A stretch of DNA of 52,583 nucleotides, counting the filler, from Streblomastix strix (Eukaryota), in the NCBI GenBank assembly GCA_008636045.1. It is 3 parts of 3 records of this genome, joined end to end, with 100 filler letters (N's around TTAATTAATTAA, not from the genome) between each part and the next. Parts side by side here need not be neighbours in the genome. Positions count along the whole stretch, not along the records: positions 35,129 to 52,583 come from SNRW01000705.1; 2 more parts are not named here. One strand, 5' to 3'. How positions within the stretch are numbered: position 1 is the stretch's first letter; each line of letters opens with the position of its first letter. Position numbers and translations under genes: made by a program. The notes beneath the pieces were generated by a model that made no database searches, had not been told where the DNA came from, and saw only the letters and a program-made list of their open reading frames with translations. Below, one piece after another: positions 17,568 through 52,583 of the stretch.

Positions 17568-18153
17568 ATGGCTATATCAGTAACTTAATTAATAAGAAAT
17601 TGCGTATAAAATTGTTAATTACAGATTTGATTTAAGTCCATTATCAGAATTCCCAGACAAATTAATATCTTCTTTCTTAATTAATTCATCGTTTGTTAAT
17701 TCATCTTATTCTTCATTATTTCTAACATCTTAATTTCTAATGATTTTTTTGTTCTGTAAATTTTCATCAGCAATATGAATTATTTCCGTTTCATTATTCA
17801 TTGGTGTATTATTAATATTACTAATTTATTATTAGTCATCATTTCCTTCTGAATCATATTCATATTCATATTCATATGAACTATCATTTTCTGTTTCAGT
17901 TTCGCTTTCATCAACAATATACTAATCTCTTTTATTGTATTTAATATCTCTATCAATATTCAAATCAACATGTTCAACTTCAATTAGTGGTTAATCTAAA
18001 TCTTAGATAATGCAGCCCCATCTGTTGTAATAATAGTTTAAGTAAGAAGAAGATATTAATTTGTCTGGGAATTCTGATAATGGACTTAAATCAAATCTGT
18101 AATTAACAATTTTATACGCAATTTCTTATTAATTAAGTTACTGATATAGCCAT
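17568..18153. repeat. Perfect 107-bp inverted duplication at contig start (17568-17674 vs 18047-18153), probable fold-back chimera
   Basis: 17568-17674 is the exact reverse complement of part of the Dicer PAZ-coding region; it abuts the contig end and truncates the gene. Confidence 0.85.
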
Positions 18154-21100: not shown

Positions 21101-24100
21101 ATAATAATCTTCCTCTTCTTAATGATAAACACAATGGGACATGAGATTAAACAGGAACTGCTTCAACTTCATCATTTTCATACAATTGAATTAATTATTA
21201 TCTTTTCTATATTAATGTTTATATTGTTACTTGTTATTAATCAATAATCTGAATTTACTAATTTCCTAGATTTGTTTCTTTATTATCCTTCTCCTTATCA
21301 TTTTTATTGTTTTCTTCTTTATTTTTAATTTACTGTCTAAATTTATATTAATTATTATGCAATCTTCCGATTCCAAATATTAAATTAGAAAAAGAAATAT
21401 TTGGAAGAAACTAAAACAATTTGCGAGAAATTAGATTATTGTACCACTAATATTACTGTAAATCTGTACATTTACACTTATTTATTATTCCTATTTGTTA
21501 TTCTCCTTATTCAATTTAATGTAACTGTTGCTTTTATATTCCTTGTTATAATTATTCGTTTTTCTTTGGTATAAAAATCGATTCATATTAAATAAATTAA
21601 TTTTATTTATTTTATTTTTGTACAACTTCATTTTTCAAAGAAATATTATTTGAATGAATTTATTATATCATACTTCTTATTGTGATATCTGCATATTTAT
21701 ATACATATTAAATATCAATATTATTCTTTCCATTGATTTATTCTTTATTACCTTCATTCTTATTTTTCACCTTCATTATTTATTTTTGTACATCTTCATC
21801 TTCATCATTTAATATATTTCCAATATATTCACCACTATCATTCAGAAATGTTGGCTTTAATTCTTCATTTAATATTCCTTTTTCATAAAAATCCTTTATT
21901 ACGCTCATGCATACTTTACGTTATGCTTCTTTTTTTGATCAAAATTACAACGATTAATATTAAATTTATAATTATTGCTCTCCGAATTATTATTGTTAAT
22001 TGAATATATTAACGAAATGAACTGGAAGTAATAATTTAGCTGTATATAATGATTATAATGAAGATTAATATTGAGGTCGAGATAATCTTGATAATGATGA
22101 AGATAACAATGATGAAAATTATGAATTATATTTATATGATTTTGAGTATGAAATTATAGCAGTAATTACTTAATTATATTTGTGGGGAACAGATGAGCAT
22201 AATTTATTAACAAAATTTCGAGCGCTTGTTTCATCAATAAATGCACCTGTTGGAGTTCGAATTACTTTATCTTCATCAATGTCAAGATCATTATCCAAAT
22301 CTATTTCATCTTCATCATCTTCATCATCCTCATCATCTTCATTTTAATCTTCATTATCTTCTTTCTAAACATTTTAATTTTTCTCTTTTTCTTTCTCTAT
22401 TATTATTTCTCTATTTAATTTCTTAATGTTTTTATTATTAAACTTTCTAACATGATTTTATGCAAATCTCAATATTTCATCCTCGCAGAACCTATTCTTA
22501 TCTAATTACTTATTCATATAATTGTATTCATCTCCATCTTCACACAAATGCCCATAAATTGCTTATCTTCTTCTTGCTCTTCCTCTTGATTATAAATATT
22601 GAGGAAGATTTTCAAATGAATCAAATCTAACAACAATATTGCAAGGTTGGAAATCAAGGCCTTCTTCAGCAACATTTGTTGCAAAAAGAAGATTAGCTCT
22701 GTTTGTTCTGAACTCTCGAACTACTTTCTTTTATGCATTAATCAACATTGAAGGTCTTAAATACTATGAAAAATCTTATCCTTGCTAATTAAATTATGAA
22801 TTATTTTACTTATTTAACATATTTTATTATTATTATTACTATTACTATTACTATTATTATGAAAATGATGTTAATGTAGAAGATAAAGATGATGATTATA
22901 TTTATGTAGAAATATTATTATTAGTATTTATTTTCAATGTTTACTGCATTGTGTGACCGACCAATACTCTAAAAAGGGTTTTAAAGAGGAAGAAAAATTA
23001 TATAAACGGAAGTTATATATTGGAGATCAAATATTAAAAATGAAAAAATCAAACCTAGAATTAAACATTGTACGAAGAGGAAGACTTAATGTGAAAAGTT
23101 TATGAAGAAGAAATGCATCCATTCTTCTTTTACATAATACAAGAGCCTTAAATTCATTTCTAAATTGTTTGGTTAAATAAATAATAAAATAAAATATATG
23201 AAATTTAGAAAAGGCAAGGTTAGAAAAAAAAATAAAAAAAATTTGTTATTAATTACCCAAGTTAAAGTCTCTTTGCAACAAGAAAAGCAATAAAAGAACG
23301 AAGTTTATTTGAAAAGCTTTGAGTTTTAACAATTAATTAGGAAGGTAAAGAAGTAAAAGATGATGAAGATTAAATTAATTAAATATTTCTCTTCATAATT
23401 AATTTCTCCTTATTTTCTGCAATATTCTTCTTTTCAATTAACATTAGCATATCCTTCCTTGATAATGGCATCCTGAAGTGAAAAAGAAGCAATTTAAATA
23501 AACAAATTAATTCCAATTCTTTATCTTTTATCTTCTCAGAAACCCATTCATTCTACAAAAATTAACATCTGTCTAAAATAGCATATATAAGAAATTCACT
23601 TTATTCACCAATATCAACTTGGTACCCAGTTTATAAATTTGTTGGAAGTATGAAATTCTAATTAATTTTATCATCAAAGATGCATTTCAACACATCAAGA
23701 ACAATCTTATAACAAGGATTAATAATTTTACCACTTTTAATTTCTTCTATGCTATTATTCTCATTTCCAAATTCTAAATATATAGATTTTCCAAATAATT
23801 TCTACATCATTGAATATATTGGAAATTCATCAGCTAATCATTGCAATGATGGACCAAGATCCGACATTTATGTACAAACATATATTATTCCCCAAGGTCC
23901 ATATATATCTATCAATTGAAAGGGTGCCAAAATTTTTATAAAAAATATAGAACAGAAATTTAAATAAAAACAATTAAATTATTTAATTCTTATAATCTTT
24001 CCTATCATACTATAAATAGATTTAATGCTATTCAAAACAGATAGAACACGATTAAATTTCATCAATTTTTAATCACGAAAATCTAATAAATTTACAACAT

Positions 24101-25090
24101 CAATTAGAAGAGAATGAATTAATCTATATCTTTAAGCAAATTCTTCAACAGAATTTAAATCATCTGGTTAATAATTCTTTAAATTAAGATTGAAATTTAA
24201 ATTAGTAAAATGTGAGTATGCATTTTTAGAATTTCTAATGAGTTGTGCAATTTATTCATCTTTCTCCAATTTGTGTTACTTATTCTTATTCGCAAAAAAT
24301 TATTAATCTCTAAAAATAATAATTAATTCTTCAGGCTTTGGAGAATATATTCAAAGGAGTTTTACATTCTTAGTTGGAGTTATAAGTTACGAATCAAATA
24401 AATCTTCAATGAATTTTATCTGGTTTTTCTGCTTTCCTGCTTACATACATGGAGATGCAGTCAGACCAAGAATTCGAGGTTTGTTTGAGAATATCTATGT
24501 TTATACTCCACCATGATAGAAGGTCTTCATAATACGTGCATACTTATTGTAGAATATATGTAAAGTTAGTAATAAAATTAATAAATAATGACATTGAATT
24601 AAAGTAAAAACAATACTATATCATCCTTCTGGCAATGATGGCACTCATCAAAGACAATAAGAGATATGCTATCTAATGTTAAATATATATGACTGACTAC
24701 ATGAAGAAATACTTCACTTACAAATATCAATATATCTCTTTCTTCTATTTCAGTCTTCCAGTGTTGTGCATCCCACTCATTGATAGAATCATCTCCATAA
24801 TAAACTCCACTTTTGTATGGAAGAGTAGCACTAATGACTTCAAATTGTTAAAGTGCAATTAAAACCTGTGGAGCAAGAAAAACTACCTTTTTTCTAATCT
24901 TTTAGTCGGAATTTTCAATAATATGCTTAATTACATAAACAGCTACAAGAGTTTTACCTGATCCTGTCTATAAAAAACAAATTGAATTGTTCTTTGTAGC
25001 AATTTCCACCATTTCAGTCTGGTATGATCTCAGCGAAACATTTCTTTGTTTTGTTTTCTCAAACTCTGTAGCTTCTTTAATTGGTATCAT
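17675..25090 (-). CDS. DCR: Dicer-like protein: DExD/H helicase + DUF283 dimerisation domain + platform/PAZ; 3'-truncated (RNase III domains not in window); two in-frame TGA
   Basis: LRSYQTEM, FLQTGSGKT, LIVFDECHH, PRILGLTASP, YGPWG, ATNVAEEGLD, YLQSRGRAR; DUF283 TGAFIDETSARNFVNKLCSSVP...YTAKLLLP...SKKEAQRKVCMSVIKDFYEKGILNEELKP; YLLVP, VDW; PAZ YKIVNYRFDLSPLSEFPD...YLNYYYNRWGCIIQDLDQPLIEVEH. About four AT-rich introns between 22970 and 24620. Confidence 0.92.
18844..18946. repeat. Short tandem repeat (27-30 bp unit, ~3.5 copies) inside Dicer, encoding SSSLLSQQ repeats
   Basis: gatgaagaa(gat)gattattaygataataaa repeated on the + strand. Confidence 0.8.
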
Positions 25091-25468
25091 TTAAATAATG
25101 GTGTCTATAAATAGCAAATATAGAGAAAAAATATAAATCATAGAAATAACAATCTATTAAGAAGGAAAATGTAATTTAACAAAAAATATTTTAATTTTTC
25201 CGTCTCTAGCCTTGCATGGTTTTAAATAACCAAAAATTTATTAATATATATGTATGCCATTAAATATATTTGTTAAAGCCAAAAATAGTTATTGAAAGAT
25301 ATCCACGGCATTATATTCTTGCTTTTTTGTAGAAAAAAAAATTGACTTGTCATCAAAGCTCGCAATAATTTAAAAATATTTATTTTTGTAATAAAAATAT
25401 TTATTAATTGCTTTTAAAGGTTACTGATAGCTTTTCTAGAAAGCAATGAGGGAAAACAAAATTATTAC

Positions 25469-35028: not shown

Positions 35029-35128
35029 NNNNNNNNNNNNNNNNNNNNNNNNNNNNNNNNNNNNNNNNNNNNTTAATTAATTAANNNNNNNNNNNNNNNN
35101 NNNNNNNNNNNNNNNNNNNNNNNNNNNN
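35029..35128. other. Artificial contig spacer (100 nt of N with TTAATTAATTAA at 35073-35084)
   Basis: Same design as 17468-17567. Confidence 0.97.
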
Positions 35129-35182
35129 CTCATTTATCCACATCAGATTAACGCACACCATTGATGCAAAAATAAATCAAAC

Positions 35183-35614
35183 TCATTAATTATAACGATC
35201 AATTATATCACTAATTTAAAGTAAATCCTGTACGTTAGTTATGATAGTTTTCTAAAGACTTCGAATCTAAAGGAGTTATAAATCGTTGGCAGATGCTCGG
35301 AATTCCTATCGCTGTATACTATATTTTTATTATGCATGGGATCGTTACTCTGCGGCAATGCGTTTGACTTCTTCTTGTGAGCTATATTTTTTAGGTCTAC
35401 CTCTTTATTCTATTTTCTCCTCATTTAGTTATGTCAATTGAATAGGATTAATTGATTAATCGGTTAAAGGAGCATGAAGGACTTCATCAATTGGACTGGA
35501 TTATGTTTCAACAAATTATGGAACTGGTTTCTTCGATTATCTTTTACGCATTTGTTTTGCTTCACTGATTGGTTAGATTTGTAGGATTTGTTTTGTTTCA
35601 CCGATTGGAGGCAT
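35183..35614 (-). CDS. Viral small AT-hook DNA-binding protein (143 aa)
   Basis: MPPIGETKQILQIQPISEAKQ...EQRGRPKKYSSQEEVKRIAAEQR...IIDRYNQ-TGA; RGRPKK is an AT-hook. Confidence 0.7.
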
Positions 35615-35633
35615 TTCATTTTAAGAAAAATTC

Positions 35634-36965
35634 TCAATTACTTATATTAAATTAACTTTTATAATTAGCTGGCAACGAATTGATATCATCACTAATAAAT
35701 TTGCAGTAATATATAGGCAACTTAATAACACTAATTTTATCATATGAATTCAATAACTTACACACAACATTACCGTTCCTATAACTAATGAATGTTGCTA
35801 ACTCATTGAATTAACGTCTCTATTTCTAAAATCTTATAGGCAATTTGACATAATCAGCGTGAATCATTAATATATTTCCACTCTTGGAATTTAATAAATT
35901 CTCATATAATTGTCTTATCATCACCTGTTCTAATTACGCTTATTTTTATCGTATGAACTTACCTTCTATTTCTCTATTATACTACACTTATTTTGGAGTA
36001 AATCTGTTCATAAATGCAAGGTGTGGAGTTCAATTATAAATCTCCACCATTTATTACATCTAGCTAGGCGTTGCAAAGCCTAACAAATCTTATCCAAATC
36101 CGTTTCTGATTGTTCGAATGACACTATCAACTACCCTATTATGCTATGTGAATGGTGAACCTGTAAAATATAATGAAATCTTATTATCTTTACAAAATTA
36201 TCTAATAATATTAGCTTTAAATCCAGTTTCACCATCACTTCTAATATTGTTAACATATACTTAATTAATGATCTTCTTTAATGCAACTAATATAAACGTA
36301 GCATTCTTCTCATCTACAATTAATGGAATGACCACTAAATATTTTGTATTAATGTTGATCGTAAATAAATAATTCTATCTCCTTCGAGTAACTGGATTGG
36401 CACCGAATACAAGATCAATCTCCCAAGATCCAAGTTTTGGAGAGAAGTATGGACGTTAGAGTTTGTTTAATGGCTTCACTTTATTATCGTTGATTTAAGT
36501 TTATTGTATTATCTTCACATTGTTAATTTTTTCATATTATTTGATTTTAGATTTGAATGGGAATAATGAAAGAGGTTTTTGAGGTTAATTGATTCGTTAA
36601 ATTTATTCAGTAACATATGATCTGTTAGAGTCTTAGCTTCTGATAGATCTAGCTCGTCTTAATGGAGCATTATACTTTTCTGCTTCTGTTTAATATATTT
36701 CATACCATTCAAGTAATGTCTTTCCACCTATCTATATTTCATCTGACTGATTAATTAAAACAGTTTATTCTTCCTTACTAGGAGTTATTCTCATATTTGA
36801 TATAAACTGTGCAAATTTCATTATTCCATTATTTGTGTTCGCTAATCGTGTGAGTTACTGCTACATATTATGTGATTCATATTCTATTTGTTCATCTGTT
36901 TATGCAAATCTTGCTAACAATAATTAGTAAATTTAGTCTTAATTAGCATATGGATCTCTGCTCAT
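35634..36965 (-). pseudogene. Retroviral-like (rve, c-integrase) integrase with a frameshift near 36690 and an in-frame TGA at 36030-36032
   Basis: GSWEIDLVF...YLFTININTKYLVVIPL...IRSDGETGF...HNRVVDSVIRTIR...EIYN*TPH: Maverick-type integrase core. Confidence 0.88.
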
Positions 36966-36991
36966 TTCATATTCAAAAATAATCATAGATT

Positions 36992-37141
36992 TCAATGGCA
37001 GATCTTAGATTCGCAAGCATATTTGATAGCGGCTTCCCAAATAGCTTTCCAGATAGACTTCCAATCAATATTCAATGATTCAAGCGCATCAATGGCTAAG
37101 GTTATATTTGCAGATAATGGTTCAAAGATAGGCATTTTCAT
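36992..37141 (-). CDS. Viral 49-aa Trp-rich amphipathic peptide
   Basis: MKMPIFEPLSANITLAIDALESLNIDWKSIWKAIWEAAIKYACESKICH-TGA; fills the gap between neighbouring genes. Confidence 0.55.
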   Translation of the reverse strand: MKMPIFEPLSANITLAIDALESLNIDWKSIWKAIWEAAIKYACESKICH

Positions 37142-37160
37142 TAGTATAAAAATAAATCAA

Positions 37161-37550
37161 TCACTCTAATGTTTTAATGAACTCTTCTAATTAATATATA
37201 TAATTATCTCGTATTTCTCTATATTCTTCGCAAGCATTATGAAGCATATTTTCGACGCTACTTTCTGAATTCATCCAATGAATCTCATCTTATATTCTTT
37301 CCTAAAGTGATATTCGCATCTCAAACGCTGTATCGCTATTTACCTCATCGAAACAAACTGTCTTCTTTTTATCTCTATAAAGTTATACACCTGCAATTTT
37401 TGCATCTAATTTTCTATCACATCTATCTAATCCATCAAGTACCCTTTATAAATCCTACGATAACTTACATAATGCACTTGTTTTTTGCATCGATTGAATA
37501 CGTTATTCAAGTCAAGTAACGGTTTCGTTTCGTTTCTCTTCGTTTCTCAT
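37161..37550 (-). pseudogene. Viral hypothetical protein with a frameshift (~37445) and an in-frame TGA (37512-37514)
   Basis: MRNEEKRNETVT*LEQRIQSMQK.../GQLDGLDRCDRKLDAKIAG...EIHWMNSE...LEEFIKTLE-TGA. Confidence 0.55.
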
Positions 37551-37574
37551 TTAGATAAAGTAAAAATAATATAA

Positions 37575-40500
37575 TCACTATTTAAAAAAATAACTATCTG
37601 CTTTAATATTATTGATAAATGGAAGACATAATTAATTAGGTAGTGCTATCATTTTTGTATGAGATCCCGTGATTGCATTTTTCTCCATTTTCAACCTGAT
37701 CATAGTACCTTTCCTCTACGCTAATGTTGTATTAATAGCTGTGGTGATAGTTCCTTTGTTATTACAGTCTATAAACGTTTGTTCATTAATCTAAGGATTC
37801 TGATCCAAAATAACACCTTTCAATGCATTCTCATTATTAATAATGTAATTTTTAGGTGATAGAGCTATGCAATTATAACCATATTTTTCCACTCCAATAT
37901 GAAGTACTTATTTCTTTCCATTCTCTGAAAACACGCAATCCTTATAAGTGTCAAAGAACACCTAGTCCCTTATGACTTCTTCAAACAGTTGATCTGGACC
38001 TCTATTTGGATTACCACTAATTGCCCAAGTTAATGAATCAGTATCTCCCTGTATAAAGTGCATTCTATTCATATTATACGCCTTGTTCATAAAATTATAT
38101 ATGAAATAAACGTATCAAAATTTTACAGAATCAAATACGAAGTAAGCTACTTATAAACATGTATTGCAACGACAGTTTTTCCTATCCACTTACATAGCAT
38201 ATAGATCTTCATTTAATTCGGTCGAATGAATGAATCCACCCAACATATGCTATATGAATGTCTTATTTGCAGAGAGTAATCTTGTATTACAATATTTCTC
38301 ACTATTCAACGCATCACTTCCAAAAGCTGAATTCAATATCAACTTACAGAACTATCCTAATCCTTCATTTTTAGCATCTTTCGCCTGCTATCTAAGATTC
38401 ATAAATTCCTTCACGAATGAGTTGAAATTAGTGTGTATCGTAAATGTGGTAACACTTACTATCTCATCGATTACAAGATGACATGTATCAATTAGTAGCC
38501 ATAAGTAGTAGTTATTGAACGACATTACCTCATTATTTGTATCGACAAAATTTGATAATTTTCGTTCAGTTTTATCATAAGGAAGTTAGTGATTAAATAG
38601 ATGATTATACATAAATTCTCCAATTGTTTCCATATTAGTTGTGATATCAATATTTCTCAGAACTGGACCCCAATTAATCACTTCATTCAAATATTTCTCA
38701 TCAATGTGACCCTTAATCTCAGCAACAAATAATATCATTTTATCGACTACTAATGGGTCATTAGAGAACCTATTAGTGTCATATATTAATGCTTTACATC
38801 TATCATAATCAGTAATCTTTTCAATAAGTTATGCAGACATGTATATAATGTGATTAGTGTATAGGTTTAGCGCATTCGGTTCACCACTCATAACACTTGG
38901 ATATTAGCTATGAAAATCTAACTAAACTACATGAGTCATCACATAATCTGAATCAATTGAATACACACACTTATTTTCTTAATCAAATTCGAAATGATTA
39001 ATTCTCGTTTCTCCTGCAATATTGTATCTATGCATCACATTTGATATACCTCCAGTAATACCTTTACGCAATAATTGATACGCTTCATCACTCGTTAATG
39101 TCATGGGTAATTGTTTAAATAACGCATATTTCCTTAGTTGACTCGTTAGTTTCATTTATTTTTCATCATGGTTAGCTTTTCATACGTTGCAGTACAAACA
39201 GCATGGAATTACATTATCTTTTGAATGACGTTTACTATTATCTATTCTATCTAATGTGGGCCTATTCTTCCATGTGAATCGTGCATTGCATATATGACAA
39301 CGTTAATTCTTGAATAGTTCTTTAAAATAACTATAATCATCAATCGTTACATTATTGCTTGAATCTCTATTTTTTTTATTATCTTATTCAATATAACTAT
39401 CCGCTTTAGCTCTCCAATAATTCTATGTGATTTCGATTGATTTGTCAGTGCTTTCATAATTATAATCTCCATTGATATCAAAATCATTATATGACATAGA
39501 ATATTTGATTGCGTTAGAGCATTAAGATATAGATATATTGTCTAGCATGTCCACATTATATTTAAACATTTACTCAATCATGTAATCAATAGGTTCAATA
39601 AGAACTCTAGTATCGAGTATGTTATAATGCTTCAAATAATCCCATCGTGATTTGTGTTTAGCTGCTTCGACAAGATACTCCTTGTACTTTACTTCACTGA
39701 GCTTCATATTTCGCAACTGATTATCAAATGCTTCGATCGGGAATGGTTCATATTTATTCAATTCATTCATATAATTATTAGTGTTTATAAATTCATGAAG
39801 AAAACGACCTTTCTTATACAATCCATTCCCAAAATCTCTTACAGCTTCCTTTAACTTATGTTGCATAGAATACATCTTAAAATCAACGAATTACAATTGA
39901 ATGCTTGAGGATTAATGCTTGACAACTATCTATTTTGCGATTGTGTTTTGACCTAAATACTTCGAGATAGTCCATTCTTTTGATCTCAAATTCTTGAATA
40001 GAATGGAGACATCAAATTTTGCAGAATTGAACCCAATTACAGGTACCTCATAGTATTATGGGATTGTTTCATCTATATATTTATTATCTTTCTTTACTTA
40101 TTTCGCTTCTTCAAATATTTACTCTAACCACTTATCTAAGAAATCTTCTGTTCGAATATCGTGATAAAATGAATGAATACCGCTAGCTAATTTGACAGTT
40201 GATGCGATAGCGTATGGAATTAACGTAGCAGTAACTTATGAAATATCACCATATTTTTCATTAACTTTCTTTTCTAATGTTTCAATATCATACGTTATGT
40301 AATATCTTGTAGGTTTAAACAAATGGGTTAGATTATTCGCTAATAGATACTTATAAGTCTTATTGGATAAAATATGAGGAACAAACGGTTTTGCAAACTT
40401 CTCTAAGATGACTTTCTTAACTATTTTTCCATCATTCTTCTGACATTTTTTCATATGATTTCTCATCTGTACTTATAGATTTTTATCACCTATTTTGAAC

Positions 40501-42078
40501 CCTTATCTATGACATATGTTACAGTAACGGAATCCAGTTAATGCTTCCACATCAGATATATACATAATGTGAGTGTTAATTCCATCATTAATGAATAGGA
40601 TATTGAACTGTTTGTCTGAATCATTTATGAGATAATTTTATGTAAGTTCATAGTTTGGAGGATCACTATCATAGGTATACATGTGCACATTAATCTATTC
40701 TTTATTAATAAAGTTATCAATATCTCCTACGAATTCGAATCTTTAATAATTATCTCGAAACTCCACTCCATTAACTCTTGAAAATATACGCTTAGCTTTA
40801 GCGATTCTTGAACAATCTTTCCATCGTTTGTCTTTTGAATTAGGCATTGTGATGAATGAATAGGCTGTCCAGAAGCATAGATTCACCTTACAATCTATAT
40901 AATAAATCTCTCTTCGTTTAATATGCTACTTTAATGATGGAATAGCTGCATCTGCTAATGGATATCGAAATACAAAGAGCATTACTGAGAATATTGATAC
41001 TATTTTTTCATGAGTATCTGTATTAGTTCTCTCTTACATGCATCCTATAACTGTTTGAAGATATTATTTGTACATATTAATGTTATCTCTAGACCTTATC
41101 TCTAATGGTGCTCTTCTTTCAGAACTTGCATCTACTGGAAGCATATATTTGTATTTAATTGATTAAACTTCATTATTACCATCAACACGTTCAATTAGAA
41201 TTCCAAAATCAACAGCTAGTTTAAACACATTACCTTTTTCTATATCGTATATTGAGTCTAAGTGTTTATCTAAATCAGCCTAAGAAGCAATATTACTATA
41301 ATACTATTTAGTTGGTTTCATTTAATTAATTGATGACTAATTATTTGATTTATATGAAAGACTGCCTGTTTCTTTATTGTATTTATTAAATGCAATGTTC
41401 TTAATCCTATTGAATTACGCTTCATTCTATATATCACATAGCATTATCATATCATTATCAGTATTTAGATGATGATACACATATTTTTCATGTGTTCTAA
41501 TGTAATCACTAATTTGTTATTAGTCTGTTTCGAATAGAATATCGATGTTCATATCCTCAACATTATGAAATTCATCTAACAATTATGCTTATCTTGCCTA
41601 TATATCTTCATCTTATTTTCTCCTATGTTCTTCTATCTCTTATGCTCTTAATTAATGCTGCTATTATCTATATCGTTCTGCATCGAATATACCTTCTTCA
41701 TCTAATAATTCTGGATCAAACTCTTCTCTAAATTCTTTTATATCCAATTCACGTTATTTTTATAATTATTCTTATTCCCTTTATATCTATTCTTCTCGTG
41801 CTAATCGTTATTACTCCCGTTAATTGAACCATTTTCGAACATGAATTTATATAACAGTTGCTGCTTTAGATTGTTCCATATATATATCGTGAAACTACTG
41901 CATTGATCGCTTATTCCTCAGCATTAACGATATTACGTTAGCCATAGAATCCGATCTTAGTCAGTATTGAACTTAGATTTGATCTCTTTTATTTATCATT
42001 CACATTCATGTTTGCGTTTGGATCGTATAATTAGAGGAGCTGATTAACGTCTTCAATTGATATCTTTGATCTAGTCAT
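37575..42078 (-). CDS. polB: Protein-primed family B DNA polymerase (~1,500 aa) with IQ-like motif, Zn finger and embedded HNH module; frameshift near 41885, TGA at 39180-39182 and 38115-38117
   Basis: ExoI YDIETLE, ExoII VIGFNSAKFD, ExoIII HYNILDTRVL, KGITGGIS, motif A LDFHSQYPSVMS, motif B CKLILNSAFG, motif C IQGDTDS; one frame from ~41880 to TGA37575-37577. Confidence 0.95.
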
Positions 42079-42120
42079 TCTTGTAATTGAAAAATAATAT
42101 TGTCATATTCTTACTCATTA

Positions 42121-43422
42121 TCAATCTTGTTCCATTTATGATGCTGGAGCTTAATATCCTAACATTGGTTAATTTCTTTGCTTTTCCATATATGCAAGTT
42201 GAGCTATACTATTATATAAGTTTCCAATATTTGTTGCCAATGCTACTTCATCATCATCAACCATTTGGAAATTTTTAGTTGCAATTTCATTCTTATATAT
42301 TCTTGCTGCTTGTTTAACAGTTTCTTTACTTGCTGCATCCCAATTTACTTATGTATCAATAATTTTCAATAGATGTCTTATAATCAAATCCCAAGCTGCT
42401 GCAGCAACATACATGTATGCTCCTTTAAGTTTCCATAAATCTCCTCCATTATTTTGATTAAATTCTTCAGCCATAGTTGGAACGTATGCAGACATGTAGT
42501 GTTGATGTGGATTCAATCTATAATAATCAGTTGCAACTTTATCCTTTCCATATGGAACCTATTTTCCTTTCATATAATCAAAGAATTTCGTAAATTTACG
42601 TTAGCCTTTTGGTATATCATGTATATAATTTTCTTGGAAAGCATCATATTTACTTTCAAGTTTTGGAATATTTCCACCCATGGAATATAGCTTCCCTTTA
42701 TCAGTATAAACAGTTGCGAAACTAGGAAGTGGTCCAGCACCATCAGGATCAACATTTCTAACTCTCCAGCCAGCCATGCTTTTCCTACTACCGATATAAG
42801 CTTATGCAGAAGGTAATATTCTCAATTCTTTATTGTATTTAATATCTCTATGTTTAAATTTCTTTACATTAAATATTTCCGTTAATGTTGCAAGCTATGT
42901 ATCGTTAAATGCTTACCCTAGATCTATATGTTTTCTTGCCGCACCAGCCTTCATTTTTTCTACTGTAGCATATTATTTTGCTGTTAACGGTTATCCCTAT
43001 CCTGCTTACCAACTTTAAAATCTTGATTGTTACGCTTAAGTCATGTTTTGGTTTTAGATAAAAGTTGGTTATTATACTTATTTTATCAATTATTCTCTTG
43101 GCTATTATGTTGGTTATTAAATCTATTGTGATTATACTAGTGGATTTTAAGTTATTATTTAAGGTTAACTTACAATTTAAGTCTATAAAGGATTTGGAGT
43201 CATTTATAAAATTGGAGTCTAATATTTTTATTAAATTCTTCGGAATGCTTCAGCTGTTTCTTCTAATATAGTTAATTCTTCTGCTTTACTTTTACGACCT
43301 TTGTGCCTATGTTAACTTTGTATTTGTTACTCCGCTTCACCTAGTTCATTAAAGAATTCGTCATCACCCGTTGCATTTCCCCAAATGTCTATAATTTCAT
43401 TGTTTAACTCTTATGCACTCAT
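42121..43422 (-). pseudogene. Viral hypothetical protein (~430 aa, possible core protein) with frameshift(s)
   Basis: MSAQELNNEIIDIWGNATGDDEFF.../...GWRVRNVDPDGAGPLPSFATVYTDKGKLYSMGG...YVAAAAWDLIIRHLL...; the frame changes near 43150 and probably near the 3' end. Confidence 0.6.
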
Positions 43423-43465
43423 TTTGATAACAAGAAAAGGTTCATAAGTGAATGAAATAATTAAT

Positions 43466-44248
43466 ATGAAACAAATGTCCTTGACAGCATATGTAGACCA
43501 ATTACTTAGCAAATAGAAAACCAATAAACATGAAGAATAATCAATCATTCATAATGAACTGAATTTCTCGTATAATTCTATCAATCTACTCATAGGATAA
43601 CGTGGAAGCGGTAAGTCATATAATGTATTCAAAAAGCTAATCAAATTGAGCTAATTGCCTAATAAATGTTACACATTGTTCATATATGTTACTGATAGAA
43701 ATAATGATATAACTTATAAGAAAATGAAAGATTTAATAAAAATACCTACAAAGATAGTACCATATGCAGAAGTGAATGAAGCATTAGACGAATTGACTGA
43801 AAGTAAGAAGGCTTATGATGACGTTATTGAATATAAATTATAGGATTAAATGAAAGAAGAATCGAAGAAAGATATACTATCTCACATTGAAGCAAAGGAC
43901 TTTTCTATCAAATTTCCACATACAATAGTGCTGTTCGATGATGCAATGAGTATCTTCAAGAATAAAAACAATCCAATATACAAAAAATTATTCAAAAATA
44001 GATAGTCAAGAATCACTTATTTCCTATGTTTGTAAGATATAATAGGTCTAGATGCTAGTATTAAATCTAATGTAGATACAATATACTTTTTCGGTGGTTT
44101 TAATACATAAAAGTTCAATTTATTCTTCTATTAGTCGAGTCTTCCAACAGATAAGGAAACATTATGGAATGAGTATGTGTAACTAGGCAAACGAGAAGCA
44201 TTACTGGAATAGTATAATAATGATGGAACAATGGTACGAGTTATCTGA
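43466..44248 (+). CDS. A32/FtsK-like genome-packaging ATPase (260 aa)
   Basis: Walker A LLIGQRGSGKS (Q=TAA), Walker B IVLFDD, NRQSRITYFLCLQD, IKSNVD; intact frame to TGA44246-44248. It is the only + strand gene of the element. Confidence 0.92.
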
Positions 44249-44249
44249 T

Positions 44250-44653
44250 TCAATGAACGTACTCATCATCTTAATAGGATATTGATTATTATTTTTATTC
44301 AAAGAAGCTAACTAAATACGTTAATTTGTCATTAATTTCTTTGATTTATTCTTATAGATTAGCCAGTTCAATTTGTTCAGATTACTTATGTTTTTCTTAT
44401 TTCAATGCCATTTATTCATTCTATTTTGTGAAGGTATATCCATCTATTTTATACAGTTTATTTAATTTTATAGTTGGCATCTTATCAATAGATTCTTTAT
44501 TAGCCGCATAATATTAGTGGAATTCATCAGTCGAATCAAACGTTAATGGTTGTACATCAGTTTTTTGATTATTTTTAATTCAGGTAATGGTTGTATTTTA
44601 TCTTAGGATTTATTGTTTTTAACTAGCTTACTATCGAATAGTATACGAGACAT
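44250..44653 (-). pseudogene. Viral small hypothetical protein with a frameshift near 44570
   Basis: MSRILFDSKLVK.../QPLTFDSTDEFHQYYAANKESIDKMPTIKLNKLYKIDGYTFTK...DDEYVH-TGA. Confidence 0.55.
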
Positions 44654-44686
44654 TTCAATTAAACAAAAATAAATTAAGCTCATGTA

Positions 44687-45571
44687 TCAATGTGCTCTTT
44701 CTGTATTAATAGTAGCTTATATGATATCAATTATGAAATCTAATTAGTCTTCTGGGAAAGTATAATGAGTTGACCATATTTTTACATCTTGTCTTGATTG
44801 TAGAGTTTCTTTAATTTTCTCATTAATCGTCATAGCTATTGGTAAATTATCTACAAATAATGATGATTCACGACGATATCGTTCTATTTTTGCGGGACGT
44901 AAGTCTTTTCTATTGATTCTTCTGATTCGTATTGTTATTTGATCTTCCTGCTAATCTTCAAGTTATTCATCTTCATTAACCTCTTCAACTATCAATATAT
45001 TCGTTCTTTCTTTACCATTTGGAACAGCTCTTGGTGCTAATTATCTAATTTATTAATTCAAATCAGTGATTCTATCAGATAATGTATCAGTAATTGTATT
45101 TATTACAATATGGAATTGATCTGCTATTGCTTATGTTTTATCAGCTTCATGTTCTGCAATGACTGTTTCGTTAATTTTATCCATTATATCAGTTACAATA
45201 TCAAGATATTTGATAGATGTCTTCATATAAATTATGTTAATTAATTTTTTATATACATATGTTCCTCTGACTTCATTAATATATTCATTAATCTGCTAAT
45301 ATTCAAGTTGAATGGGTTGGATGGTTTTACAGCCTACAGATTTATCCTAGATAAACTTCTTGTAATCCCTATACATCTATGTTGATGTTATATTCTTAAG
45401 TAATTTTCTTATATTCCCTTATTCATTAATCAATTGAACTAGTTTAGTAGCGTTAACATATTCATCCTAATCTCTTATCAATATTTCGAAACCATTATAA
45501 GAATCAATTGTGATTGTCTCGTTGTTAGAAGTTATTTTGCGCAAATTGGGTGTTGCTGCTTGTGATGCCAT
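44687..45571 (-). CDS. KilA-N/APSES-like DNA-binding protein (294 aa)
   Basis: SYNGFEILIRDQDEYVNATKLVQ...EVRGTYVYKKLINII: KilA-N hallmarks YxNATKL and GTYV; followed by a coiled coil. Confidence 0.85.
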
Positions 45572-45738
45572 TTTCTGATTAGTAAAAAAGTAGGATTAGT
45601 AAATTGAAACGAACGATAATTAATTGATGCTTAAAAATAAATCGAGAGAATACATTTAGCTGGTCAATTAAACCGATAATTTGAGCACTAATCTCCATAT
45701 CAAATTGGTCCGTTCAAATTGAACGGGCTAGTTAAAAA

Positions 45739-46113
45739 TCAATATTATAGCATCAATTCAAGAACAAATTTTATATCCGTTTATGAAACATTCAAATTCA
45801 TATTATTTTTGAACCAAATCAACATACTTGGCTAATGATTCATTTATTAAATTTCAGTAGATGTTCCAGTTTCATTACAAAAACTTACAAAACTATCATA
45901 ATATTATTCTTTTTATACTAGTGTTGAATGAATAGAGATAATATTAGGAGTATTTAGAATCTTACATTATATGAATACTATTTTTCGTTAATTATTTGAG
46001 TTAACAAAATCATAAGGCAACTACATTTTAAACATTCCATCTACATACATACAATCATCCTACATTATTTCGAAGCGTTTTACATTCGAAGCTGAAGTCA
46101 TATCAAATGGCAT
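45739..46113 (-). CDS. Putative minor capsid (single jelly-roll-like) protein (124 aa)
   Basis: Beta-strand-rich ORF right after the MCP: LPYDFVNS...ISIHSTLV...YDSFVSFCNE...MLIWFKN...KFVLELMLQY-TGA. The function call is inferred from position and composition. Confidence 0.5.
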
Positions 46114-46141
46114 TTTATAACAAAAATAATATTCATCAATA

Positions 46142-47863
46142 TCAAGCAGTAACCTAGTTAATAAACTAATCAAATGAATGAGTTGTATCAAATAAGCAAG
46201 ATCCTCCATCTCTTGGGCTAAAGAGCCAGAAAGTATCATGAACAGTGCACAGAATCGGAGGAAGTGGATGTTTTCCATTAGTGTCAACATTATAATAAGT
46301 ATCTACTTCTCCTGCGAATATTGGATGTCCTTTTAGTTCAATGGAAGTATTTTAGTTCTAGGTATCTAATCCATCAAATGTTAATGCACCATTGCTATTG
46401 CGTTCACATTATATTGTAATGAAGAATGATGTATAATCACTAACAGGATTGTATCTTCGTGTTTTATTAGCCCTTGGAGTTGCGAGTGAATCTTCATATT
46501 CATCACATGCTTCGAAAATATTATCGAGATTATTAGCTTATAATTACATTGTGAAGAATTATTCATTAAGAGTATTCTTTGGGAAATCTGGGAAATTTCT
46601 ATTCATTGTGTTAATTTACATATCAAAATAGCATGGATTTTCATAGCAAGTAACATGTCTAGCATCCTTAGGGAATAGTAAGCACATATCAGTTACATGA
46701 GATAGAGGTATATTTTAAGTTGATTTTATTCCTACAGATGAAGCTGCACTTAGAAATACCCATGATTCAATACGTTATATAGGAACAACAAATGAACGAC
46801 TTTAATAGAATTATCGTACACGATTAAGACAAGATTCTGATGCTTTATATCCACACATATTTGCTGTTAAGGTTTCAATAATATAGTTTCTTACGGATAC
46901 TGTAACAGGCTTAATATCACATACGAGATTCTTTAATCCTGAAGGAGCAAGCACTTCTGCACGTATTCCAGTTATCAAATCAGCAGTGCATCCAATTTAT
47001 GTGTACATTTTAATGTATTAGAATGTGAGACTCCAGTTGCGGAAGAATAGATCAATATCCTTAAGCTTATCTTAATCTGAACTCAATAATTCATCTTCAT
47101 TAATTGTTTAATATTTAGCCATTGAAAGTACTGGATCTTCTTAGCAGAATACAAATGCGCTTGGATTAATCTTGAATTTAATTTTGAGATCACCAAATAG
47201 AGAATTAGGATATTCAGAGAATGCAAAGAAAATGAGTAAATCATCCAAAGGAATTGATATTGTGAAGCCAACTGGCATAGCATATGGAGAAGAAGTTTAT
47301 GGTGCAAGTACTTCTGAAATTTCTTTAATGCTTAGATATCTACCACAGCAAGATATGTCATCTTTACGCACATTTTAATAAAGAGAATGGACAAATTTTT
47401 TATTATTTTTCTCTGATTTTGGTTTGATAGTATTATAAATAAATGATTCAGTTGTTGCATCGTTCTAGAGAGATCCATCAATGGTATTTCCTCGATGATA
47501 TAGAACATACTGTTTAATCAATTCAGCTGAATTCTTCAATCCTACAAATATGAAAGTACCTTCTTTATAGGCATCATCAAATTAATCAAATTTATTATCG
47601 AATAACAGGTTCATTTTAAACTCAAGTGTAATGAATGAATTTTATATTTATGTTACATCATGATCAGAATCGGATAAACTGATGATAACTTCCTTATCAA
47701 ATAATGATGGCATTTATGATTCTGGCTTGATCTCTTTGATTGAAAAATGGTGCTCACCATCGTTCTAAAATGGTTGAATTACGAATGTCTTTAACAGGTT
47801 CTCAACAGTCTACAAGTTTTCCTGTGATTTGGGGATATGAGTCTTCATAAGCTAGCGATTCAT
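46142..47863 (-). CDS. Putative major capsid protein (573 aa, double jelly-roll inferred)
   Basis: Open beta-rich ORF (NSFITLEFKMNL, FIFVGLKNSAELIKQY, ISIPLDDLLIF...YPNSLFGDLKIKFKINP, FDGLDTQNQNTSIELKG) of MCP size in a pPolB/ATPase/integrase element. A homologous N-terminus may extend ~30 nt further via a 1-nt indel at ~47832. Confidence 0.72.
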
Positions 47864-47916
47864 GTTTAATTGCGCAAAAATAATCTGATTATATGTTAGT
47901 TAACTCAATTAATGAT

Positions 47917-48246
47917 TCACTATAATTCATCTCCAATTAGCGTTATACGGTTACTTATTATATCAATCGGAATCTTTCACCTTAAGTAATCATCCTATCG
48001 GAATGTCTTAAAATCCTATCTGAACTGTTATTTTGATTATTATTTATTCGGTCCAAATAAAGCATCAACTGCAGATGATCCTACACTAACGCCTTTCGCA
48101 ACCATACTTCCTGCTGGTCCCAAAGATGATAGAAGTGCGTTAGTTATGGGCATTATTGGTTTGACTACTTTATCATTCATCCAACTGATTCCTTTACCTA
48201 CTACTTAGACTAATTTTTTTAGCTTGTTGAATATTCCTGCTGTCAT
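47917..48246 (-). CDS. Viral small protein with N-terminal cationic amphipathic helix (adenovirus pVI-like); in-frame TGA at 47977-47979
   Basis: MTAGIFNKLKKLVQVVGKGISWMNDKVVKPIMPITNALLSSLGPAGSMVAKGVSVGSSAVDALFGP...; lies directly upstream of the MCP. Confidence 0.65.
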
Positions 48247-48299
48247 GATTTTAATAGGCAAAAATAAACGTATTTGCATCAATTTATCGAATCAATGTC

Positions 48300-49913
48300 T
48301 CATAAGTAATACATTCCACTTGAGCAATATTTATAAATATCAGTTGATGAATCAGGGATAACATCTTGAATATTTTATAAAACGCAATATAGCTTTTTAA
48401 ATTGTTAATTGAAACAGAAATAACACATACCCTACCAATTAATATATCCACCAGCATTTCTATAGACTGATGCAGGAAATCCTATGCTTTTACCATCAGC
48501 TGGTAATACAGCATCTGGAAGCAAACCAATCTCTTATGTACTTGTTGCTTATCCTTTTGTCTCGAAATATAGGTTGAATACACAAACTTTGCATGTTCCA
48601 TCATCAACAATATAATAAGTATTATAGGCATGACCTCCGTAATCAAAAGGTGCAATAAGTTGAATTTAATTGAATACATTAGTTATTGTAAATATATGTA
48701 TGGATGATGCTAATTTTCCATCATGTTTTATTATCACTTCATCAATATGGGAATCTGGTTTTTTTGGATCAGTTGGATGTGCATTTGGCTCCTCATTTGA
48801 TGTTGGATTCTTAAAGTTATCCAGTATATATGTTCCTTGAAATTCACAATCATACTTATTCAATATTCCACTTACAGCTACTTCTACCGCTAATGATTTA
48901 TCATAGATATCTTTGAACAAACACATAGCAGCATATTCCTATTGCTCAGTTCGAACAGGCATATATATTATATTTGGAAGAAGTAATTTTTAAGTTATTG
49001 TCGAAAATAATCTATGAACTGTTTATCTGTTTTCTGAATTCGATTGTTATATAATTTATCCTAATTTTGCTCCAAAACTAAATGTAATAAATGGACCTTC
49101 CTTAATGAAGAATGCTGCTCTATCCACTTTATAGATTGCTGATTCATCCTATAAATTTATATCACTATTCAAATAATTTACTTTAACATCACCAAACAAT
49201 CCAGTTGCGATCAAATCAGTTTATTTTTTCACAGTTTCATATACATGAGATGAAGTTTCAAATGATCCTTTACCATTAACATGCCAAGTATCCATTATAT
49301 CAACTCGTCCGTCATTATTCGCATCATAATTTATTTTCTTCGATTATTCATATTTTTTATAATATGTTACGTTTATGGAGAGACCAGTTTTAGATGGTAT
49401 CTATGAAGTACTGATGATAAATGGTCCATTCTAATCAATATAACAAAATATACTATTTTTATTCGTTGTGTTTGTTCCAACTAATGCAATCACTTTATCC
49501 CCCTCTTTTGGTCTCGCAAATTCTGGATAACTTTTGAATAAATATCCATTAGGAAATAATCCAGTAGTTTCATATGACGCGGTTAATGTAACACGACCAC
49601 CGTACACAATTAATTATGGATCTGATCCACTTGATGCTAAGAAACTAGATCGTTCCAGTAATGAACTTAAGTCTAATTTTTAAGTAGCGTTTGATACTGG
49701 AGGGATGAACTCTTCGTTTGCACTAAAAAGAATATCATCATTATCTTTCACTTATTTTTGTAAAGTTTATTGTTCGATTGGTACTCTCTCAGCTGGTGGA
49801 ACTGGCTTCTGATCTCTCTCGATAATATACGCATAATATTCTGGAAATTCAAATAGCCCTGCTGCTTCTAATAATGCTTCATCTAGGTAAACAGTACCTA
49901 TTTCATAACTCAT
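48300..49913 (-). CDS. Viral beta-rich fibre/spike-associated protein (537 aa) with a Ca-binding loop
   Basis: One frame joins track ORFs 49767-50033 and 48666-48926 under TAR=Gln; fibre-tip-like motifs (YPEFARPK, IGLLPDAVLP) and YDANNDGRVDIMD. Confidence 0.7.
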
Positions 49914-49986
49914 TTCATAGTTCAAAAATAATAGTATTAGACTTGTTTGATAGGTAATGCTAATATCAATAGCTCCATAATTGTTT

Positions 49987-52583
49987 TCAATTTGCTGCAG
50001 GATATGTAACGTTGATATATGCTGATGCTGCACCAGCCAAACCTGCAGTTCCAGATAGTGCTTTAATAGTTATCGTAACCTTTCCATCAGTTCCAAATCT
50101 GAAATTTGCGATATGTGGTGCAGAGCCAACAAAAACAATATTATCTGCATAAAATAAATACTTTGGAAATCCAGCACTTTCAAGTGTACAAACTGCAACT
50201 GATGCACCAGATGCTCCTGCTCCATTACCCATATATATATATATATATATCCGTAAAAGTTGATTACTAATCCATATTTATAACATTTTAGTGGCATTAT
50301 TGAAGTTGGACTAACAACATTACTAGTATAACTAATATTTACTAATTCTAATCTTTCAAATGCTGATAGTAGCATATCTCCTCCACCAGCTAATAAGACT
50401 GATGAATCATCTTTATTTGTTTTCGCAAATCCTGTTGCACTAACATTTGAATTGAATGTCTTTGCCCCAGTTATTGATTGAGTTGTATTTGTAGTAACAA
50501 CATTCGTTAATTTTGCATCAACTTCTGACTAAGTCAAATAGGTATTTTCAACTGGATTTTATGTCTCATCATATGTTCCACCGAATGGATTTACATATTT
50601 TAATCTTCCTGTTATTGTTTATTGAATTGAACCTTCCAATCTTACAAATTTATTATTTGCTTCAGTTTGTGAATAAGTCTATGTTTTATTTTAATAATTT
50701 GATAAATCAGTTGTAGTACCAGTAAATTCAGATATTGATTTTGTTACACCTGCTCCAAGTTATACTACAGTATCATCTGCACCTGATTTGACAAATGATG
50801 ACCCTGTTACTGTCGACATTCCATCTATAGAACTTACAAATCTACAAGCATTATTGAATGTCTTATTTGCATTTATTGTTTATGAAGTACCTAAGGTCAT
50901 ATAATTAGATAGTTCGATTGCATCTGCTTTCTCTCCTAATAATTCATCTGTTTTTGTTTTATTGTAATAATCAGTCAAATCAACATCTCCAACATCAATC
51001 TACGATATTAATTGATCAGTTTCTGTTTTGGTATATGTTGTTGATTAATTTGCTTTATTATTTAACAGATTATTTGTTTCAATTTTTGTATATGAATCAA
51101 TCAGTTATGTCTTATCAGCTTTCAGTAATTAGAGTGCATCATCTTCTGTCTTGGTATATGTTGTTGATTTATCAGCTTTAAGTAATAAGAGTGCATCATC
51201 TTCACCTTTCGTATAAGAAATTCCAGTATCTGCTTTATTATTTAATAAGTTATTTGTCTCACCTTTAGTGTATGAATCAATCAGTTATGTCTTATCAGCT
51301 TTCAGTAATTAGAGTGCATCATCTTCTGTCTTGGTATATGTTGTTGATATATCAGCTTTCAATAATAAGAACGCATCATCATCATCTTTCGTATAAGAAA
51401 CTCCAGTATCCGCTTTAATATTTAATAAGTTATTTGTCTCACTTTTAGTGTATGAATCAATCAGTTATGTCTTATCAGCTTTCAGTAATTAGAGTGCATC
51501 ATCTTCACCTTTCGTATAGGAAACTCCAGTATCTGTTTTATTATTTAAGAGATTATTTGTCTCAACTTTAGTGTATGTTGTTGATTTATCAGCTTTCTGT
51601 AATAAGAGTGCATCATCTTCTGTCTTGATATATGTTGTTGATTTATCTGCTTTCAATAATAAGAGAGCATCATCCTACGATTTAGAATATGAAACACTTT
51701 AAATATCTGCAATTGATCTAGCTCCTTCTCCTGCGCAAACAACACTTGAATTATCATACGTTTGAACCATGATTCCAACTGAATGAATTGTTGTATTGAA
51801 TGTCTTTTAACCACTAATACTTTGATCATAATCTGTATCTACAAAATTTTTATTTTTCGCTGGGGTTAGTAAATTTCCATCAATTGATATATCAGTAATA
51901 GCATTACCTCCTCCAGTAGCTATTCCTAGAGTTGTGATAACATTACTCATATCAGGTAATTCTGTTTCTAGCACTTTTATGTCTGTTCCATCCCACCAAT
52001 AATTTGTTACTTCCTTATCAACAATATATAAATTATCTCAAATTACTAATTTTGCTACATTATCTTGAACAGCCATCCAGTCATTCAGCTCCCCTTAAGT
52101 TGAGAATTCATATGCTTTTGATTTTCCAGTCGCAATATCTCTAACTTCTTATAATTATGGTTGTATTACTAATGAACTTACTAACATATCTCCACCACCT
52201 GCATGAAAAATAGAAATATCATTTTTACTCAATTTAAGTATGCCGGAAACATCAATTATACCGAAATATTTTTATCCTGTTATTGTTTGAGCTGAAGTTA
52301 ACCAACATAATTAGTCAAATCAGCAACATTAGCTTTCAAGACTAAGAGTGCTTCATTTTCTGTCTAGAAATAAGCATCAATTAGTTGAGATTTATCAGCT
52401 TTCAATAATTGAAGAACATCATCTTCTGTCTTGAAATATGAATCAATTAGTTCAGATTTTTCAGCTTTCAAGAGTAAGAGTGCATCATTTTCTGTCTTGG
52501 AATACCTATCAACAATATCTACAACATTAGCTTTCACTAATAAAAGCGCATCCTCTTCAGTCTTAGTATATGCTTCAATTAGC
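49987..52583 (-). pseudogene. Repeat-rich virion fibre protein, 5'-truncated; frameshifts near 52300 and 50240, TGA at 52038-52040
   Basis: Many KAD...YTK.E.D.LL repeats, four Q(T/S)I.(G/A).K.F motifs, GGG/GAG hinge motifs, and a C-terminal beta-rich tip ending YINVTYPAAN-TGA. Confidence 0.8.
50920..51680 (-). repeat. Tandem coding repeats (57-66 bp units) of the fibre shaft
   Basis: Recurrent tatcagctttcagtaattagagtgcatcatcttc and gtatgaatcaatcagttatgtc blocks encoding KADKTQLIDSYTKGETNNLLNN, KADTGISYTKGEDDALLLL and KADKSTTYTKTEDDALLLL; more copies at 52320-52583. Confidence 0.9.

Follow-up and report, generated by a model that had tools for sequence, protein, structure and literature searches.

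Streblomastix strix contig SNRW01000705.1 as a probable decayed and integrated copy of a Maverick/Polinton-type family using TAA and TAG as glutamine codons

Whether the third contig in a 52,583-nt window of the Streblomastix strix genome (assembly GCA_008636045.1; the window being the whole stretch of DNA analyzed) represents a near-complete virus, and how its genes came to be written with TAA and TAG as glutamine codons, are the questions raised by this locus. The window joins three contigs of ~17.46 kb each with N-spacers between them, of which contig 3 (SNRW01000705.1) is a whole contig of 17,455 nt at 35129-52583 preceded by an N-spacer at 35029-35128. Contigs 1 and 2, which are not its physical neighbors, carry cellular genes open under genetic code table 6 (e.g., dynamin and helicase pieces), and their GC contents are 27.8% and 24.0% compared to 29.9% for contig 3. 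An initial annotation had described contig 3 as a near-complete endogenous Polinton-like virus (PLV) in the host's non-canonical code and had drawn from it long co-evolution, a host-range barrier imposed by the code, and invisibility to standard-code searches. The reading reached here is that contig 3 very likely represents one copy, decayed and likely integrated, of a Maverick/Polinton-type DNA virus family with many copies, the Metamonada group. Its host is a termite-gut protist that reads TAA/TAG as glutamine, very likely S. strix.

The major capsid protein (MCP) is encoded by an intact frame of 573 aa at 46142..47863 on the minus strand. Its AlphaFold2 (AF2) model had a pLDDT of 91.9 and a pTM of 0.91, and Foldseek matched it to the capsid proteins of PBCV-1 (E=1.1e-13), Sputnik (3.2e-12), mavirus (9.4e-12), and also an iridovirus, with a Z of 20.2, an rmsd of 4.3, and 343 aligned residues against PBCV-1 Vp54. 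The Sputnik value is close to the 2.6e-12 given for an S. strix MCP model by Bellas et al. (2023; PMC10120064). The sequence itself was without a match in Pfam, PHROG, and PDB, as would be expected if the element were a capsid-less transposon, but this explanation was refuted because the protein models as a double jelly-roll, the confident model matching such capsids throughout the structural match lists, and its probability is practically negligible. The double jelly-roll identity suggested for this frame was thus confirmed at the level of the predicted fold. A 124-aa frame directly after the MCP (45739..46113, minus strand) had been called a minor capsid gene, which its position favors; no homolog was found among proteins of 68-217 aa and no Pfam, PHROG, or PDB match by sequence, so that the assignment is by position only. 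A second 124-aa frame (47802-48176) was rejected as a gene because, in a different frame, it runs over both the 89-aa gene and the beginning of the MCP gene. The packaging ATPase candidate (A32/FtsK-like; 43466..44248, plus strand) is intact and has Walker A (GQRGSGKS) and Walker B (IVLFDD) motifs, while its other matches were weak and of terminase type only; the A32-like assignment follows these motifs, and no Pox_A32 match was obtained at E<=0.1.

The use of TAA and TAG as glutamine codons was established independently of the translation itself. Read in the standard code, the longest stop-free run in any frame of contig 3 is at most 152 codons, compared to ~93% of the contig being coding under table 6, in agreement with the translation check proposed at the outset. 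TGA terminates every complete element gene, and TAA/TAG make up 278 of the 360 glutamine codons (77.2%) in 13 element open reading frames (ORFs). A non-circular test used an alignment of the capsid to distant homologs, 65 long ones taken from the 150 listed: glutamine constituted 27% of the homolog residues facing capsid TAA/TAG codons, a 5.7-fold enrichment. Eight of the nine columns with glutamine in at least 40% of the homologs are TAA/TAG in the capsid gene of the window, and at one TAA/TAG column glutamine was present in 63/65 homologs. The recoding claimed for the element is therefore well founded.

The level of recoding equals that of the host, as raw host ORFs (n=10) had 655/855 glutamine codons as TAA/TAG (76.6%), a share that did not differ from the 77.2% of the element (Fisher p=0.88); this match shows amelioration. 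The element share of TAA or TAG (TAR; 0.772) is also close to 0.79, the T/(T+C) of these element genes at their two-fold third positions, and mutation pressure is therefore enough as an explanation. Selection for TAA/TAG was considered and set aside as unnecessary, given that the TAR share matches the T/C bias of these genes.

Related capsid genes also bear on this recoding. A 3-kb contig (L001) carries the 5' part of a sister MCP that is likewise recoded, with 70.5% DNA identity and 15/20 glutamine codons as TAR. In two distant relatives (L002 and L003), 44/44 glutamine codons are CAA or CAG (CAR), and L002 has TAA as the stop codon of its MCP gene, in keeping with the standard code. Recoding likely took place along the S. 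strix branch, as read from sequence with one outgroup checked. The long co-evolution initially proposed is consequently better worded as long residence in a table-6 host, for which the shared codon level, the recoded sister copy, and the standard-code relative all speak.

The same codons would restrict expression elsewhere, as a standard-code stop is met within 4-49 codons in 10/10 element genes. The host-range barrier drawn from the code can be read directly in the sequence, but it would be one-way, and not absolute because another table-6 oxymonad lineage exists (PMC13002328). As for the suggested invisibility, standard gene callers would miss these genes, but the family had been found and counted in 2023, by a separate handling of S. 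strix according to the text of that study (Bellas et al., 2023; PMC10120064).

Affiliation with S. strix is supported by the close relatives. Among the matches listed, self excluded, each of the 119 MCP relatives carries the name of S. strix (48-91% identity), as do 34/34 of the pPolB (protein-primed PolB) relatives. MCP relatives of the P0020 type (60-62% identical) start like the S. strix MCP in Table S3 of Bellas et al. (2023; PMC10120064), and in an MCP tree of 77 rows the 12 S. strix-type rows lay on one side of a branch with an SH-aLRT of 100 (the drawing being midpoint-rooted only). A common gene order, including the 537-aa, 89-aa, and MCP genes, was recovered from fused gene models of other copies. 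Pieces related to contig 3 covered all 30 bins in four of four termite-gut or coded sequencing runs from three studies, one of which is possibly the source run. Depth in these runs differed between the capsid half and the replication half, a difference left out of account because such depth is not a measure of copy number. Scans of JGI metagenomes gave 0 loci by protein pattern and one by DNA pattern, and GTDB genomes gave 0 loci with alignment A3 and three with P0173. Three of the contigs with capsid gene relatives (L002-L004) are filed under an alphaproteobacterial genome and probably represent protist DNA carried into a bacterial assembly. L001 additionally encodes at 1930-2460 a GH92 alpha-mannosidase-type gene in table 6 (E=3.6e-24), which the protist may, at a guess, have acquired from a bacterium. 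The sister MCP and a table-6 GH92 gene thus lie on one contig, which suggests integration for the family as far as the sequence can be read.

The element type is defined by its replication and integration genes. The pPolB gene (37575..42078, minus strand) is broken in this copy and was recognized by conserved motifs, homologs, and an HNH match; its start at 42078 was set by homologs. Its layout comprises a likely terminal-protein domain, a candidate vOTU Cys/His domain, an exonuclease, an inserted HNH/endonuclease VII domain, and the palm. The acidic residues of the exonuclease and palm are kept in nearly all aligned copies, and a homolog that shares 83% identity with it across residues 498-1450 passes the Pfam profile DNA_pol_B_2 (PF03175), in line with the polymerase identity given before. 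The HNH/endonuclease VII domain (39110-39450, residues 835-944; PHROG E=2.4e-12) lies in frame between exonuclease and palm and is common to other copies.

The N-terminal region of pPolB was approached by a fold model of residues 200-520, which was weak overall (pLDDT 45.6) with a better modelled first domain. Against PDB, the top rows for this first domain were mostly Y-family LF/PAD structures (best Z 6.1, below 8; rmsd 4.0, 102 aligned), a type of match reported for PRD1-like terminal proteins (Krupovic 2024, 10.1101/2024.03.18.585575). Against BFVD, the top seven were adintovirus, bidnavirus-like, and MELD proteins (E 7e-5 to 1e-2, TM 0.2-0.27). The layout of terminal protein followed by vOTU has been described for pPolB in the same study, and the candidate vOTU residues were kept in 17/21 (Cys357) and 25/28 (His459) alignments; no OTU structure was among the PDB matches listed for the N-terminal model, whose corresponding region is of low confidence. 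Because both fold matches are weak, the terminal-protein domain is graded as likely from the model and the vOTU domain only as a candidate.

The RVE (retroviral-type) integrase gene (35634..36965, minus strand) has rve as its best Pfam match (profile positions 6-97 of 102, E=2.2e-4), which agrees with the initial call, but the score of 21.9 bits is below the gathering cut-off of 32.6 and the frame holds one premature TGA at 36030-36032, a site with a different base in other copies. The KilA-N domain protein (44687..45571, minus strand) is intact and was upheld by a Pfam match above cut-off (E=1.6e-10).

The copy on contig 3 reads as decayed. Frame reading and homolog alignments revealed at least nine breaks in four genes and the fibre gene: one stop in the integrase; one stop, near 37513, in a small minus-strand ORF of ~129 codons (37161..37550); two stops (TGAs at 39180 and 38115) and one frameshift (near 41880-41890) in pPolB; one frameshift in a small minus-strand ORF lying in two frames (44250..44653), where other copies have an indel near 44560; and at least two frameshifts and one stop in the fibre gene. 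Homologs have a residue at the two pPolB stops in 13/13 and 7/9 alignments, so these stops are copy-specific. The MCP, ATPase, KilA-N, 89-, 124-, 433-, and 537-aa frames remain open. Because pPolB and the integrase are interrupted, this copy, read as assembled, would be incapable of copying or integrating itself. The description as near-complete could not be upheld, the contig being an internal part of the element that ends inside it, with the fibre gene cut by the contig end and no end-to-end inverted repeat found in contig 3.

Several points weigh against the reading of a decayed, integrated copy in its host code. Contig 3 is without host flank, terminal repeat, or target-site duplication, and integration of this particular copy is for this reason only likely. 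The host ORFs used for the codon counts may include introns, and among the distant homologs the genetic code was read in a single lineage (1 of 65 rows). The assignments of integrase, ATPase, and minor capsid are weak, and the vOTU region of pPolB was modelled at pLDDT <50. Finally, near-identical contig pieces (98% identity) from the sequencing runs were at most 81 nt long and none ran across the stretch, so the contig is possibly a mosaic and its breaks possibly artefacts. That the contig is a short-read mosaic of related copies, with stops and frameshifts partly due to assembly and with intact active elements elsewhere in the genome, is accordingly a possibility to be kept in mind, if on the unlikely side. 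The family shatters the assembly graph, catalytic residues are conserved across copies, and assembly artefacts of this kind are reported by Bellas et al. (2023; PMC10120064), where polishing removed premature stops in other protists; but the gene models of many other copies are truncated or fused, which would fit real decay too.

A free or episomal virus genome sequenced along with the protist cell would account for a contig with no host DNA at either end; this is very improbable given the number of breaks, the hundreds of diverged copies known from the S. strix genome, and the sister MCP beside a table-6 cellular gene. The family might instead now spread only within the genome as a self-copying transposon, its capsid genes being leftovers that form no particles. 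Scans of IMG/VR found no relative, which is a weak negative because the peptide patterns were back-translated without TAA/TAG; no virion has been reported for Maverick-Polintons in the text of a recent survey (10.64898/2026.06.19.733378), and the code barrier would restrict new hosts. This view is unlikely, however, as the MCP, ATPase, 89-aa, and 124-aa genes are intact here while the replication genes are broken, and the MCP keeps 35 of 37 strongly conserved columns. A decayed copy of a capsid-encoding family remains the preferred reading.

The remaining candidate virion genes lie upstream of the MCP on the minus strand. The 89-aa protein (47977..48246), also upstream of the MCP in other copies, has an N-terminal helix with a hydrophobic moment of 0.59, a value reached in 14 of 2,916 windows of six other element proteins. 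The amphipathic character of the peptide earlier called pVI-like was therefore supported, but a Pfam search gave no adenovirus pVI match and the likeness is by analogy only. Its resemblance to the ORF upstream of the MCP in L004 and L002 is positional only and not significant (tblastn E=0.18; no hidden Markov model match at E<=1). In other copies the 537-aa ORF (48300..49913) comes before the 89-aa and MCP genes; it had no PHROG or PDB match, and a receptor-binding or spike role would be a guess. The fibre-like repeat gene (49987..52583) matched PHROG 5004 (E=1e-19) and a PHROG tail-fibre family (E=7.9e-6) and contains repeats of 57-66 nt. What had been counted as two fibre proteins looks like this one broken gene and the separate 537-aa ORF. 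No protease family was found among 17 element ORFs or pieces with Pfam or 15 with PHROG, nor a motif in a six-frame scan of contig 3, in accordance with the earlier remark on a missing adenain-type protease. Such an absence is ordinary for PLVs; since the element ends are missing, a protease gene outside the contig is possible.

Other minus-strand frames include a 143-aa ORF (35183..35614), whose AT-hook-like motif is weak (Pfam AT_hook at E=0.072 only) and which, along with pPolB and integrase, has a match in another copy's fused gene model, and a 49-aa ORF (36992..37141) that is possibly real, has a Trp/Ile-rich helix, and is preceded by the motif TTATTTTT. A 109-aa part of the ORF at 37161..37550 had no significant Pfam or PHROG match, and the 433-aa ORF (42121..43422), Gln-rich in its N-terminal third, no meaningful one. 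Between the 124-aa ORF and KilA-N, a short intergenic stretch (45670-45740) with a small palindrome has local duplications that differ among copies and is a possible module boundary.

The motif TTATTTTT occurs 12 times on the main coding strand (35175-49931, minus), with an ATG 8-13 nt downstream in 9/12 occurrences compared to 1/10 on the other strand and 5/36 in the host contigs (background 0.155, p=7e-6, the motif and spacing window having been chosen after the occurrences were seen). It correctly marks the pPolB start that homologs had set independently. It was not found before the two divergent starts (ATPase and 433-aa ORF) nor before the MCP of L001. The motif is likely, from its placement in the sequence, a compact promoter or initiator, with a 3'-end signal as a possible alternative, and it resembles but does not equal a TATA-like motif of Monocercomonoides as described in PMC6759080. 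Some PLVs are tied to helper giant viruses by promoters that the two have in common (10.1101/2022.07.28.501842). By extension, the S. strix family could be a still-active, code-locked lineage whose TTATTTTT promoter is read by an equally recoded helper giant virus, its copies serving this amitochondriate protist as an antiviral reservoir of virophage type; this is a speculative and improbable extension.

Comparison with known systems located the element in the Metamonada group of Bellas et al. (2023; PMC10120064), a group of endogenous viruses (MCP cluster 40) whose hosts are S. strix and Trichomonas vaginalis. That study reported 820 such MCP hits in S. strix, use of the host code, and an inferred long association, so that MCP family, host, table-6 code, and the inference of long association are the same here. 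No difference in kind was detected; the text of that paper centers on the MCP and gives for S. strix neither a gene map nor codon counts, and nothing on pPolB domains or an upstream motif. A literature search, its scope excluding figures, preprint supplements, and subscription papers, found no paper with a gene map of an S. strix element. The element shares pPolB, RVE integrase, a candidate packaging ATPase, and double jelly-roll MCP with Maverick-Polintons (Polintoviricetes, groups 1 and 2), and its likely terminal-protein domain would correspond to their fusion of this protein to pPolB (10.1101/2024.03.18.585575). In contrast to these, no cysteine maturation protease (adenain/Ulp1, group 1) was found in the contig and the MCP is too divergent for placement; Metamonada elements were likewise left ungrouped in the survey cited above (10.64898/2026.06.19.733378), which among the major PLV groups credits a core protease to Gosseviruses alone. 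PLVs as defined by Yutin et al. (2015; PMC4642659) lack a protease and, with one exception, the RVE integrase. The element shares with them a protease-less minimal morphogenetic module and similar size, but they are mostly without pPolB whereas the element has both pPolB and integrase. Because of this gene content (rve-type integrase and pPolB with no protease found), the element is, judged from its annotated genes, better described as a protease-less Maverick than as a PLV in the strict sense; the original label was apt for a capsid-encoding Maverick/PLV-type element in host code but not for a strict PLV.

An intact member of the family would function in the manner of polintons: its RVE integrase would insert the linear genome into host DNA, and pPolB would copy the genome from the terminal-protein domain predicted in the polymerase's own N-terminus, a domain that the putative vOTU-like Cys/His domain may cleave off. 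Packing of DNA into a capsid of modelled double jelly-roll fold would fall to the ATPase, without a maturation protease. As host ribosomes translate the element genes, glutamine codons in a table-6 host would drift under AT-biased mutation from CAR to TAR up to the host level (77%), a shift that needs drift only and no adaptation.

Two cellular genes were observed on the other contigs: a dynamin-family gene on the plus strand (1800-4172) with 790 codons open under table 6, and a large gene in pieces on the minus strand (17577-25141) with DEAD and Helicase_C domains. The latter has what we take to be a Dicer-like look, and a Dicer-like identity would bear on the silencing of these elements.

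Family, host, code, and copy number are published, and because the finding as a whole is thus already in print it has little value as a discovery. It has modest value in providing a gene map for a virus group that is still unplaced, the Metamonada Mavericks, to which are added here the glutamine codon shares, the standard-code relative, the likely terminal-protein domain and the HNH insert of pPolB, and the TTATTTTT signal. It provides a measured case of a virus at the reassigned-codon equilibrium of its host while a relative keeps the standard code. If the speculative helper-virus lineage were real, hundreds of S. strix copies would serve a virophage-like antiviral role and the helper would be an undiscovered termite-gut giant virus. 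Should particles or a helper virus be found, the family would offer a natural test of the genetic code limiting the host range of a eukaryotic DNA virus.

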